A DNA stretch of 64,000 nt from a virus, in the IMG/VR virus record IMGVR_UViG_2574179724_000002. One strand, written 5' to 3'. Positions 14,061 through 55,790 of this stretch are shown piece after piece; position 1 is the first letter of the stretch; each line of letters opens with the position of its first letter. The position numbers and the translations under genes are program-made. The notes beneath the pieces were generated by a model. That model saw only the letters and a list, made by a program, of their open reading frames with translations, searched no databases and was not told where the DNA came from.

Positions 14061-14966
14061 ATGGCAGATGCAAATTTAATTGATAAAAATAGTTTAGGTA
14101 CGGTCAATGCAATTGATTTCGTCAATCAGTTTGGCTATTCCGTTAAAAAGTTACAGGAAGCATTAGGGGTTACTCGTTTACAGCCGATGAAACAAGGTAA
14201 TCAGATCCAAACTTACAAATTTGGTATTACTAAACCAAAAGATTCAAATAATGCTGAAGTTGATCCAGCAACAATCGGTGAGGGTGAAACTATTCCGTTA
14301 ACCAAAATCACACGTGAAGTAGCTAACACTTACACCGTTGGATTCAGTAAGTACCGTATGGGAACAACTATTGAAGCTGTTCAAAAATACGGCTATGACT
14401 TAGCTGTCGAAAAAACTCAGCAACAGATGCTTCAGGATATCCAAAAAGATATTCGTGCTAAGTTCTTTAGTTACTTGGGTACCGCTCCCAACGATTTGGG
14501 TACTGTCGGAGATTTACAAGACGCTTACGGCAAAGTCTATGGCAAGTTGTTAAGTGAGTTTGATACTGATACACCACAGATTATTATGTTCATTAACCCT
14601 GTCGATGCCGGTAATTATTTAGGAACAGCAGCTATCCAAAACGGTCAAGGCGTCGCTTTTGGTCTTACCTTATTGAAAGGCTTTTTGGGTGGTAATTTTG
14701 ATGTTATTTTAAACGCTAGTGTTCCAGCTGGAACTTTCTATGCGACAGTTAAAGATAACATTAATCTCCAGTACATTGATGTAAATGGTGAATCAAGCAA
14801 ACTGTTCCAGAACAAAACGGTAACTACTGACGAGACTGGTTTAATCGCGTTAGTCCAAGATGATACGATTGAAAACTTGAGTAACGAATCAGTTATCTAC
14901 CAGGGCATCAATCTGTTTGCTGAAGTTGAAAATGGTGTCTTAAAAGGAACATTGGGGTCAAAATAG
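14061..14966 (+). CDS. Major capsid protein
   Basis: Follows scaffold; AIDFVNQF, IGEGETIPLTK, GINLFAE. Confidence 0.88.
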   Translation: MADANLIDKNSLGTVNAIDFVNQFGYSVKKLQEALGVTRLQPMKQGNQIQTYKFGITKPKDSNNAEVDPATIGEGETIPLTKITREVANTYTVGFSKYRMGTTIEAVQKYGYDLAVEKTQQQMLQDIQKDIRAKFFSYLGTAPNDLGTVGDLQDAYGKVYGKLLSEFDTDTPQIIMFINPVDAGNYLGTAAIQNGQGVAFGLTLLKGFLGGNFDVILNASVPAGTFYATVKDNINLQYIDVNGESSKLFQNKTVTTDETGLIALVQDDTIENLSNESVIYQGINLFAEVENGVLKGTLGSK

Positions 14967-15229
14967 TAGCGCCTGACGGTATCACATTAAGTCAAAAGAC
15001 AATGAGCGGTACCGCTGGCACTACTAAGTCAGTGACTGCAACTTTGACACCTGATGGCGCTTCGGGAGATGTAACAGCAACATCTAGCGATACATCAATC
15101 GCTACTGTTGCTAAAAACAGTGATGGCAGTTTTACAGTTAATTTAGTTACAGCTGGTTCAGCAACGATTACCTTTGCTACTGGCGATGTAACAAGCACAT
15201 TAGCTGTAACTGTTAGTGCTGCTAGTTAG
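14960..15229 (+). CDS. Ig-like (Big_2) domain in the -1 frame, probable frameshift extension of the capsid protein
   Basis: TCA AAA TAG; -1 frame reads KIVAPDGITLSQKTMSG...TSSDTSIATV...AGSATIT; no RBS for ATG 15002. Confidence 0.75.
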   Translation, partial: KIVAPDGITLSQKTMSGTAGTTKSVTATLTPDGASGDVTATSSDTSIATVAKNSDGSFTVNLVTAGSATITFATGDVTSTLAVTVSAAS

Positions 15230-15240
15230 GAGTGATTTAA

Positions 15241-15591
15241 ATGGCTGATTCAAGTCAGGTATTAACTAAGATTAAATCACTTTTGAGCTTGAAAGATAAC
15301 TCGCAAGATGATGTTTTAAACACAATTATTGATTTGATTTCAGCTCGTTTGAAGTCAAAAATTGGTAAAAAAGTTTCGGAAGATGTGCCTGATGAACTTG
15401 GGTATATCGTAGTTGAAGCAAGTGTTTCAAGGTTTAATCGAATTAGCGATGAAGGCAAGAAGTCGGCAAGCGAATCAGAAGTTAGCGCTACGTATGAAAC
15501 TGATGATTTAGCACCATTTGCAAATGATATTGCTGATTGGATTGCTAATCAAAATGATGGCAACGCTACTGGAAAGTTCGTGATGTACTGA
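15241..15591 (+). CDS. Head-tail connector protein
   Basis: VPDELGYIVVEASVSRFNRISDEG. Confidence 0.85.
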   Translation: MADSSQVLTKIKSLLSLKDNSQDDVLNTIIDLISARLKSKIGKKVSEDVPDELGYIVVEASVSRFNRISDEGKKSASESEVSATYETDDLAPFANDIADWIANQNDGNATGKFVMY

Positions 15592-15911
15592 TGAGATATC
15601 TTGATACAATCACATTCGTTAAAAAAACAGCTAGTCATTATGACCCGGATTTAGGTCAAGACGTTGAAGGTGAGAGCAAAGAAACTAGTGTACTTTGTCA
15701 TGTAGTAACTCCATCAATGACTAAGTCTGCATTGGTGATTGGTGACTTAAAAACAACAGATGTCATTGTACACCTCAAACAGCCGTTTTTAGACACTTTT
15801 GACTATGCCTTGATAAATAATACTCGGTACACGTTAGAACTATCCAAAACGGTTAATAGACGGCAAATTTTAACTCTTAAAGGTGGTAATGCAAATGGGA
15901 GTAACACTTAG
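15591..15911 (+). CDS. Head closure / head-tail joining protein
   Basis: MRYLDTITF..K...YDPDLG; synteny. Confidence 0.7.
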   Translation: MRYLDTITFVKKTASHYDPDLGQDVEGESKETSVLCHVVTPSMTKSALVIGDLKTTDVIVHLKQPFLDTFDYALINNTRYTLELSKTVNRRQILTLKGGNANGSNT

Positions 15912-53642: not shown

Positions 53643-54287
53643 ATGACAGTTGATTTAGAAAAACGCCAAGTATCGACAAAAATCAGTTTGAGAACAACAG
53701 ATGATCAAGACGGCGCCCCACAACTGATTGAGGGCTACGCTTTAAAATTTAATCGGCAATCTGATGTTCTTGGTGGGGGTTGGGGGCCAACTTTTCGTGA
53801 AACAATTGATCCACATGCATTAGATAATACTGATATGTCAAATGTAGTCGCAACTTTTAATCATGACGAAAGCAAAGTCTTAGGCCGTACAGGAGTTAAC
53901 TTACAACTTTCAGTTGATAATATTGGGCTTAAATTTCAAGTGCAACCTCCAGATACACAATTGGCACGTGACTTAATGACGAATATTGCTGCTGGAATTA
54001 TTAATCAGTGTAGTTTCGCGTTCACGATACCTGATGAAGCTACTGCACAAGATTGGGAAGAATCAAACGAAGATGATGTTGATTATATCCGGAGTATTAA
54101 TCAGATTGACCATCTCTATGATGTTTCAGTAGTGACTACACCAGCTTATCCTGATACAGAAGCAGTTGTTGGCCAACGGAGCAAAAAGCTAGTTGAAAAC
54201 TTAATCAAGCAGAAGGATTCATGGAGACAAGAGCGAAAAAAGATGTTATTAGAACTAAAAAAACAAGAAATTTTAGATCAGATTTAA
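53643..54287 (+). CDS. Prohead protease, HK97 family
   Basis: IEGYALKFN, FNHD...LGRT, CSFAF, LYDVSVVTTPAY. Confidence 0.93.
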   Translation: MTVDLEKRQVSTKISLRTTDDQDGAPQLIEGYALKFNRQSDVLGGGWGPTFRETIDPHALDNTDMSNVVATFNHDESKVLGRTGVNLQLSVDNIGLKFQVQPPDTQLARDLMTNIAAGIINQCSFAFTIPDEATAQDWEESNEDDVDYIRSINQIDHLYDVSVVTTPAYPDTEAVVGQRSKKLVENLIKQKDSWRQERKKMLLELKKQEILDQI

Positions 54288-54329
54288 AAATCTGGTCTTT
54301 TTTAATACAAGAAATTAGGAGGGTCACAT

Positions 54330-55529
54330 ATGACTTTAGATGAAAAAATCAAGGCTTTAAAAGCCGATATTAAAGTTCAACGAGATAAACTGAGTGCAGA
54401 TCAAGTTTCGCTTCGTAACTTAGTTGAAAAAGCAGAATCTGATGAAGATTTAGCTAAGGCAAAAGATGCAAGGGGTAAGGTTAATGACCTTAAAGAGGAA
54501 ATTCGAAAGAACGAAGATACTCTTAAACTCTATCAGGGAGCTCTGGAAGGTGACGGCCACAAAAAAACAGTAGCAGGTCGAAATAATAGTGATCCAGAAA
54601 AAAATGATCGTTGCAAAGCTATTATTGAATATATCCGTTCAAAGGGTGTAAAACGTGACGGCTTGAAATTCGAAAAAACTGACGAAGGCACATTTGTTGT
54701 TATCAACAAACGTGATATTGTGCCAGCAACCGATGGTGTATCATCAACTGACGTTGCTAAAACAATTCCCGATGCTATTTCTTATAACCCGCAGCGTGAG
54801 ATTCAAACAGTTGTTGATTTAAAAACATTTACTAACGTTTTTCAAGCCACAACCAAAAAAGGTAGCTACCCAACTGTTGCTAATGCGACAACAAAAATGG
54901 CAACTGTTGCAGAATTAGCTGCTAATCCAGCAATGGCAAAGCCTGATTTCGATGAAATTGATTGGGCAGTAGATACTTACCGCCAAGCACTGCCTATTTC
55001 TCAAGAATCGCTCGACGATTCAGAGATTGATTTGATGGACTTGCTTTCGACAAACGCTGATCAAATCAAATTAAATACAACCAATGATGCAATTTCATCA
55101 GTTTTGAAAACATTTACTGCTCAGACAGTAGCTTCTTTGGACGATTTGAAATTGGTTAACAATACCAAGTTAGATCCTGCATATGCCCGTACACTAGTAG
55201 TTACACAATCATTTTATCAGTGGTTAGATACCTTGAAGGATAGCAATGGTCGCTATTTACTGCAAGATTCAATCATTTCTCCAAGCGGCAAAGTTGTTTT
55301 TGGTATCCCCGTGGTAGTTGTATCGGACGAAACTCTAGGTGCTGCTGGAGAAGCTCATGCTTTCTTAGGTGACATCAAGCGTGCAGTGTTATTTGCTAAC
55401 CGAGCTGATTTCATGATTCGTTGGGTTGACGATAATATTTACGGTCAATATTTGCAAGCTGGCATGCGTTTTGGAGTTGCAAAAGCAGATGAAAAAGCTG
55501 GCTATTTCTTAACTTACTCAAAATCCTAA
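54330..55529 (+). CDS. Major capsid protein, HK97 family
   Basis: N-terminal coiled-coil delta domain; LPISQESLDDS, LKDSNGRYLLQ. Confidence 0.93.
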   Translation: MTLDEKIKALKADIKVQRDKLSADQVSLRNLVEKAESDEDLAKAKDARGKVNDLKEEIRKNEDTLKLYQGALEGDGHKKTVAGRNNSDPEKNDRCKAIIEYIRSKGVKRDGLKFEKTDEGTFVVINKRDIVPATDGVSSTDVAKTIPDAISYNPQREIQTVVDLKTFTNVFQATTKKGSYPTVANATTKMATVAELAANPAMAKPDFDEIDWAVDTYRQALPISQESLDDSEIDLMDLLSTNADQIKLNTTNDAISSVLKTFTAQTVASLDDLKLVNNTKLDPAYARTLVVTQSFYQWLDTLKDSNGRYLLQDSIISPSGKVVFGIPVVVVSDETLGAAGEAHAFLGDIKRAVLFANRADFMIRWVDDNIYGQYLQAGMRFGVAKADEKAGYFLTYSKS

Positions 55530-55790
55530 CGCCTGACGGTATCACTTTATCACAAAAGACAATGAGCGGTACTGTTGGAACTACTAAACAGGTAACCCGC
55601 TACACTGACACCTGATGGCGCTTCGGGAGATATAGCAGCAACATCTAGTGATACATCAATTGCTACCGTTGCTAAAAACAGTGATGGCAGTTTCACAGTT
55701 AGTTTGGTTGCGGCTGGTTCAGCAACAATCACGTTTGCTGCTGGCGATGTAACAAGCACATTAGCTGTCACTGTTAGTGCTGCTAGTTAG
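55520..55790 (+). pseudogene. Ig-like (Big_2) capsid extension in the -1 frame, broken by one extra C at 55596-55598
   Basis: Near-identical to 14960-15229 but 1 nt longer; premature TGA at 55613-55615. Confidence 0.75.

Follow-up and report, generated by a model that had tools for sequence, protein, structure and literature searches.

Based on our analyses, two copies of a single capsid-decoration cassette lie in the window, by which we mean the whole 64,000-nt stretch of IMG/VR virus record IMGVR_UViG_2574179724_000002 that was analysed. The window consists of two prophages in tandem, and the copies form direct repeats at 14958 to 15243 in prophage 1 (copy 1) and 55518 to 55804 in prophage 2 (copy 2); positions are on the plus strand unless stated otherwise. 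The cassette comprises a putative -1 slip site, a predicted stem, an immunoglobulin-like (Ig-like) domain, a ribosome binding site (RBS) and the ATG of the next gene. With a probability of roughly 0.8, the two copies are C-terminal decoration modules of the phage A2 gp5A/gp5B type that recombine between phage lineages, copy 1 being intact and copy 2 broken.

The repeat search returned two blocks, 14958 to 15027 against 55518 to 55587 (86% identical, spacing 40560) and 15038 to 15243 against 55599 to 55804 (90% identical, spacing 40561). In a gapped alignment, similarity runs from TCAAAAT exactly up to the ATG of the downstream gene, and outside the copies both flanks are unrelated. Each copy therefore has the same placement, starting within the final codons of a gene for a major capsid protein and ending with the ATG of a head-tail adaptor gene. 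Over the span between slip site and Ig stop, the copies have 87.5% identity, and copy 2 is longer by 1 nt, an extra C. These results confirm the shared cassette at 14958 and 55518 first proposed in a sequence-only reading of this DNA, and the strings quoted there as identical, CGCCTGACGGTATCAC and GACACCTGATGGCGCTTCGGGAGAT, were found in copies 1 and 2 alike. That reading had also named an assembly chimera as a danger; a chimera, or a chance match, is vanishingly improbable as the source of the similarity. The two copies are the only ones in their own genome (2.56 Mb, 2 contigs), where the E value of 4e-95 for the second copy puts the repeat far beyond chance, and they differ from each other at 12.5% of sites. 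A chimera is excluded because independent viral contigs are colinear through each copy, L007 and L010 across 13296 to 20231 and L013 and L016 across about 50520 to 59000.

The genes on either side of the two copies are of different kinds. Copy 1 follows major capsid protein 1 (MCP1; 14061 to 14966, 301 amino acids (aa)), which matches phrog_544 major head protein (6e-39), gave no match in a Pfam search and stops at TAG (14964 to 14966). Copy 2 follows MCP2 (54330 to 55529, 399 aa), which matches Pfam Phage_capsid PF05065 (1.7e-21) and phrog_10 and stops at TAA (55527 to 55529). No significant similarity between MCP1 and MCP2 was detected by BLASTP (best E 0.87), so that the lack of visible similarity between the capsid genes, as originally claimed, holds. 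The two are nevertheless probably remote, HK97-fold relatives, since the phrog_544 capsid of contig L017 also gives a weak phrog_10 match. The gp6-like head-tail adaptors that follow belong to different subfamilies: adaptor 1 (15241 to 15591) matches Pfam Phage_connect_1 at 8.5e-16 and phrog_132, and adaptor 2 (55802 to 56122) matches Phage_connect_1 at 1.5e-4 and phrog_40 at 5e-18.

In copy 1 the Ig-like domain lacks its own start and occupies the -1 frame immediately 3' of MCP1, and copy 2 has the same layout, interrupted. Starting at the slip site, the -1 frame of copy 1 stays open as far as 15229, giving an extension of 88 codons and a stop (14963 to 15229). Its 90-residue stretch matches Pfam Big_2 (PF02368) over residues 8 to 86 with 33.2 bits against a cut-off of 22.8, and phrog_215, 'structural protein with Ig domain', at 5.6e-17. 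A shift at the Lys codon would yield a predicted fusion product of 389 aa (301 + 88). The 0 and -1 frames of copy 1 are jointly open only over 37 nt ending at the capsid stop, so any shift must fall in those 37 nt, and TCAAAAT is the sole element of this stretch common to both capsid contexts. Across 11 distinct sequences, the median ratio of non-synonymous to synonymous substitution rates (dN/dS) was 0.19 in the Ig frame versus 1.2 and 2.3 in the other frames, which shows, as far as substitution patterns can, that the -1 Ig frame is under purifying selection.

A simpler arrangement would be that the domain is made alone, without frameshifting, as a free 75-aa decoration protein from an internal ATG (15002 in copy 1, 55562 in copy 2). 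This ATG is kept in 13 of 13 sequences, and gene callers list the 75-aa open reading frame (ORF), but several observations make such a protein very unlikely. Homology begins at the slip site and not at the ATG, no Shine-Dalgarno-like sequence was found upstream of the ATG, and the homologous extension of phage A2 is made by a -1 shift. The 14 codons from the slip site to the ATG are also conserved as protein and carry many synonymous changes (197 synonymous versus 151 non-synonymous differences, summed over pairs), which exceed expectation. This synonymous excess, together with the missing RBS, argues for an extension that starts from the slip site rather than a free protein.

Known relatives of the extension were found by protein comparison. 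A DNA search with the cassette against 50,697 phage records gave no match, and one against 14 other species of the genus gave no real match; only the protein search succeeded. The closest phage records to the Ig part were Lactobacillus phage A2 and its relatives (59.8% aa identity, E 6e-23), and the A2 region matched lies under two 'major head protein' features. A search with the Ig protein in 400 genomes of the family returned nothing closer than 60%. MCP2 is 59% identical to A2 ORF5 (gp5) over its full length (E 3e-178), and its identity as the gp5 orthologue places copy 2 in a long-standing context. MCP1 is not homologous to gp5 by BLASTP. At the junction, A2 ...ACC CCA AAA GCG TAA CGCCTGACGG... 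aligns base for base with copy 2 ...TAC TCA AAA TCC TAA CGCCTGACGG..., and the A2 site C_CCA_AAA, the 9-nt spacer and the CUGACGG arm align with the cassette of the window. The A2 stem starts 9 nt past the A run, and the longer A2 capsid product is reportedly essential, in the words of the title of the primary paper on its frameshifting. Judged by these alignments, the cassette and the proven gp5A/gp5B recoding unit of A2 are homologous. As the review PMC5009743 relates it, the Ig-like extension of the A2 capsid (gp5A/gp5B) is made by -1 frameshifting (Garcia et al. 2004, via PMC5009743).

The likeness to A2 thus extends to a Big_2 Ig-like extension in the -1 frame right behind the capsid gene, a shift site in the last codons before the stop, and a CUGACGG arm 9 nt past the A run. 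The differences are that the window has N_TCA_AAA where A2 has C_CCA_AAA, so that only the Lys tRNA would re-pair in the window; that the cassette also stands on MCP1, a capsid with no detectable gp5 similarity; and that copy 2 is frame-broken, the case in the window being known from its sequence. The Lacticaseibacillus phages iLp1308, CL1, CL2, J-1 and PL-1 offer a further comparison, as their capsid records list a second, longer or 'minor' product. In iLp1308, CL1 and CL2 a slip site terminates the capsid gene and the -1 frame behind it holds a Big_2 ORF; iLp1308 also shares with prophage 1 a MuF/scaffold-type head module. The Ig parts of all five, however, are only 50 to 59% identical to those of the window, and iLp1308 has a phrog_29 rather than a phrog_544 capsid and a C_CCA_AAA slip site.

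The slip context TCAAAAT lies at 14958 to 14964 in copy 1, where it forms the first shared bases of the repeat and falls within the 37-nt stretch, and at 55518 to 55524 in copy 2, a position orthologous to that of C_CCA_AAA in A2. It is invariant in 13 of 13 clade sequences, in all of which the slip site reads N_TCA_AAA (N being G, C or T). Because TCA would occupy the P site, only the Lys tRNA could re-pair, and the A_AAA tetranucleotide (14960 to 14963 in copy 1, with the TAG stop directly after) is the proposed -1 site. A minimal -1 shift site has the form Z_ZZN (review PMC5009743). Two other candidates were set aside: G_GGG as an alternative slip site in MCP1, which is absent from the MCP2 contexts, and transcriptional slippage, the A run being only 4 long.

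Related junctions were seen well beyond the clade. C_CCA_AAA stands one or two codons before the stop in A2, iLp1308, L017/L018, L051, L070 and L078, and the same junction motifs terminate four PHROG capsid families in other Lactobacillaceae. In a prophage of another genus (L077; G185:C50, reverse strand, about position 1437 of the reverse complement), G_TCA_AAA_TAG is followed by ...GCAGCGCC. The capsid gene there is PF05065-like, 25% identical to MCP2, and ends ...GCA GCG TCA AAA TAG CAG CGC C, nearly the junction of copy 1; the linker behind it is longer and leads to an Ig domain of 46% identity. L071 (G163:C35, about 16130 to 16180), likewise from another genus than that of the window, has a 310-aa capsid gene followed by a 60%-identical Ig domain, with the run ACAAAAAAAGC at the junction; the run suggests a slip site of the A_AAA_AAA/G type, which would be a third variant.

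A stimulatory stem downstream of the slip site is plausible from folding predictions. In copy 1 the predicted stem-loop spans 14971 to 15019 (minimum free energy (MFE) -28.6 kcal/mol, z -4.2), its core arms being CUGACGG (14973 to 14979), 9 nt past the A run, and CCGCUGG. The predicted stem-loop of copy 2 (55533 to 55578) has the arms CUGACGGUAUC and GGUACUGUUGG and an MFE of -15.9 kcal/mol. In a hand test on 10 distinct sequences, 92% of the cells of the A2-like stem were paired, compared with 31 to 57% with a slid partner. RNAalifold gave another consensus fold with little covariation, and an Rfam search returned only a chance match below threshold.

Relatives of the cassette were found on 11 IMG/VR contigs and one metagenome contig, and a pattern scan of the viral contigs returned the same 11; scans of genome contigs gave no close relative, and those of metagenome contigs the single one just named. 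Their cassettes are 77 to 92% identical to copy 1. The capsid gene upstream is of the MCP1 kind (91 to 97% aa) in six of the 12 and of the MCP2 kind (92 to 95%) in three, is cut in one, and in the remaining two is only 59 to 61% identical to MCP2. Downstream stands adaptor 1, adaptor 2 or a third type, the last in L006 and L015, where it is 39 to 41% identical to adaptor 1. In all 12, what is homologous to the window's other prophage does not extend beyond 14958 to 15243 or 55518 to 55804. Similarity of L006 and L015 to prophage 1 stops exactly at 15240 to 15244, and in L014 and L050 the cassette is 85 to 98% identical to prophage 2 while the surrounding capsid gene is about 65% identical. From about 5285 onward, L006 and L015 have an MCP1-type head joined at the 3' end of the cassette to the third adaptor, after which comes a tape-measure region about 70% identical to that of prophage 1.

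The cassettes have also been reshuffled internally. Copy 2 is 97.8% identical in its 3' half to the MCP1-linked cassette of L006, compared with 82% in its 5' half. A PHI-like permutation test for recombination within the cassette gave p 0.001, and 46% of informative site pairs failed the four-gamete test; together these are strong evidence, from the alignment, for recombination inside the cassette. In a maximum-likelihood tree, all MCP2-linked cassettes, copy 1 and L006 form one clade (99/99) apart from the other MCP1-linked cassettes, a topology that implies at least two changes of capsid type. The tree is unrooted, as 90 residues at 50 to 60% identity are too little for rooting.

The portable frameshift-plus-Ig module postulated in the sequence-only reading is thus borne out by sharp boundaries in 12 of 12 relatives, three capsid variants, three adaptor types and internal recombination. 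The listing of flanking capsids that was to accompany a DNA search for the cassette came from the 12 related contigs, with their three capsid variants, and not from the phage records. The comparisons support the view that slip site, stem and Ig domain would move as one portable module, a view sharpened by the derived TCA_AAA site common to both capsid contexts. In the part of the literature reached through the review, phage Ig-like domains are described as often reached by frameshifting and as moving between proteins (Fraser et al. 2006, via PMC5009743). The cassettes resemble the domains so described in being C-terminal on a structural protein, reached by a putative frameshift and borne by dissimilar carriers; they differ in that the shift site and stem would travel with the domain, homology starting exactly at the slip site in both contexts. 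They also resemble the mosaic boundaries of temperate phages, where linkers serve as crossover points, in being a short conserved segment between non-homologous modules with breakpoints at gene borders. The segment in the window, however, would be a functional unit of recoding signal and domain and not an intergenic linker.

A stronger claim had been that the cassette moved recently between the two resident prophages and that the repeat could excise a circle amounting to a ready-made chimeric phage. The prophages are in tandem and the repeats direct, the copies share exact runs of up to 28 nt (the longest being 28, 26 and 26 nt), and exchange between the two lineages does occur in the population. 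The geometry stands as proposed: a crossover between the copies would release a 40.56-kb circle with a formally complete gene set, namely the terminase, portal, protease, capsid, integrase and replication genes of prophage 2 and the adaptor, tail and lysis genes of prophage 1. The chimeric head and tail combination, on the other hand, did not appear: MCP2 before adaptor 1 and MCP1 before adaptor 2 are both missing from the 12 relatives. Nor did a recent move hold up: the copies differ at 12.5% of sites with a synonymous divergence (dS) of 0.40, and each has closer relatives on other contigs, L006 being 92% identical to copy 1 and 90% to copy 2. Both combinations of capsid and cassette also occur separately on other viral contigs. 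We therefore regard recent copying within this cell, with a repeat poised to yield a viable chimeric phage, as most improbable. Descent of both copies from a wider phage population, and not by transfer inside this cell, is the explanation that best fits the divergence values.

Copy 2 is broken as it now reads; neither this break nor the homology to A2 figures in the sequence-only reading. Its -1-frame extension (55523 to 55615) continues for 30 codons after the Lys and ends at TGA (55613 to 55615) in a truncated Ig domain. Alignments place the frame-breaking extra base in the CCC run at 55596 to 55598, where copy 1 and 12 of 12 relatives have one base fewer. The remaining two-thirds of the Ig domain lie in frame 0 (55596 to 55790) and are shut off upstream by stops. 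An intact protein with residues equal to the copy 2 read-through (P0020) is present on five other contigs. P0019, a cluster member of the 43-aa fragment, was set aside as an unrelated aminotransferase-like protein.

The extra C could also be an assembly or polishing error, in which case neither cassette would be damaged and capsid decoration would be expected of both prophages. An insertion that turns CC into CCC, a read-through identical to P0020 on the five other contigs, and a second single-base insertion in the MuF gene of prophage 1 would all suit such an error. As a check on the assembly, the whole genome was searched with 235 long ORFs taken from a 400-kb portion of a congener. Full-length, single-frame counterparts existed for 160 of them (189 kb), and not one was broken into two frames; indel errors are hence not common in the assembly, and the extra C is probably real. 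Moreover, 22 nt of the prophage 1 primase gene are tandemly duplicated, a lesion not of sequencing origin, which indicates that the prophages accumulate real damage. On balance an error is unlikely, and we consider the extra C a real mutation with fair confidence.

The duplication, at about 2470 to 2513 (two copies of ATGCTTGATAAGGTTTTTG...), throws the prophage 1 primase out of frame, leaving two ORFs (1420 to 2499 and 2366 to 3367) that match positions 16 to 340 and 335 to 620 of phrog_864. Judged from this lesion, prophage 1 is probably replication-defective. In the MuF gene, a one-base insertion at about 12468 to 12475, relative to the intact 636-aa gene of L015, severs the C-terminal part; a different frame carries the final 122 residues (88% identical) on to about 12833. 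With lesions in both prophages, induction of the strain may give defective particles.

The remaining features describe the setting of the two cassettes. In prophage 1, an SPP1_portal gene (9577 to 11016), the Mu F gene (10991 to 12478) and a 208-aa head scaffolding protein (13416 to 14042; Pfam DUF4355 1.6e-23, phrog_172 1.5e-42) precede MCP1, forming a head module of the SPP1-portal/MuF/scaffold type with a Terminase_3 terminase. In prophage 2, MCP2 stands with a prohead serine protease (53643 to 54287; Pfam Peptidase_S78 2e-41), a Phage_portal-type portal and a TerL_ATPase/TerL_nuclease terminase. The PF05065 match with an adjoining S78 protease is therefore true for MCP2 only, MCP1 being a phrog_544 capsid with a separate scaffold. 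Between the prophage 2 portal and protease (52733 to 53623) lies a 257-aa ORF with no Pfam match that shows presence/absence polymorphism: L013 and L016 have it (95 to 97% aa), L012 lacks it and has portal and protease side by side, and it was not found in L014 or L050.

Prophage 1 ends with a lysin gene (28488 to 29741) followed by two small genes. Prophage 2 starts with an integrase on the minus strand (30997 to 32139; Pfam Phage_integrase 5.6e-27), which marks the junction of the tandem prophages, and an S24 repressor. Another integrase lies about 8 kb upstream of the window. A third integrase-like gene (G000:C1:587255-587869), with an open frame of only 258 aa, is situated just past the expected right end of prophage 2 and may have been left by an element that occupied this site earlier. 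Going by the name of a single cluster member, the host is probably a Liquorilactobacillus.

In the mechanism that we propose, most ribosomes would terminate the capsid protein at its own stop, while a fraction would slip back by one base as the tRNA-Lys on AAA re-pairs with the overlapping AAA of A_AAA in TCAAAAT. The slip would be aided by the stem-loop 9 nt downstream and, in prophage 1, by the adjacent stop codon. Slipped ribosomes would add an 88-residue linker and Big_2 Ig-like domain to a subset of the capsid subunits; in copy 2, the one-base insertion would cut the extension short at 30 residues. The segment that begins with the slip site and runs to the adaptor start codon would act as one exchangeable module, which recombination would have set behind dissimilar capsids and before different adaptors, with reshuffling between lineages continuing.

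Several points weigh against this account. That ribosomes shift at A_AAA, how efficiently they do so and what the stem contributes are inferred from sequence, and the slip site departs from the canonical X_XXY_YYZ heptamer, since a P-site tRNA-Ser cannot re-pair well; in the whole clade only the A_AAA tetranucleotide permits re-pairing. The stem shows one-sided changes and no compensatory base changes, and both of its arms are also coding sequence. The fold of copy 2 is no better than that of shuffled sequences (z -1.4), which is equally true of the proven A2 sequence. The unrooted tree gives no direction of transfer between capsid types, and the extra C of copy 2 lies in a short homopolymer, where an assembly error could arise.

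The A2-type recoding cassette is known, and the window holds a real, well-bounded and recombining member of this type with one copy broken. A broader proposal is offered tentatively, as one that could well prove too wide: a self-contained recoding cassette may be spreading among Lactobacillaceae phages, able to join any capsid gene ending in ...SK/PK, with N_TCA_AAA working by Lys tRNA slippage alone. It would at the same time serve as a crossover point at which head modules and connector/tail modules are swapped between otherwise non-homologous phages. Capsid genes of this kind would best be annotated as joined by a -1 shift, without separate genes for the 75-aa 'Ig-like domain protein' ORFs. 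With TCA_AAA in place of CCA_AAA, the cassette would offer a naturally occurring change in the A2 slip site that several capsid families retain and that suits a test of single-tRNA slippage. In the review's account, Ig domains have been suggested to land out of frame by chance, with frameshifting selected afterwards (PMC5009743 on Fraser et al. 2006). In contrast to such evolution in place, the cassettes described here suggest that a signal for programmed frameshifting and the domain that it delivers can move as a pair.

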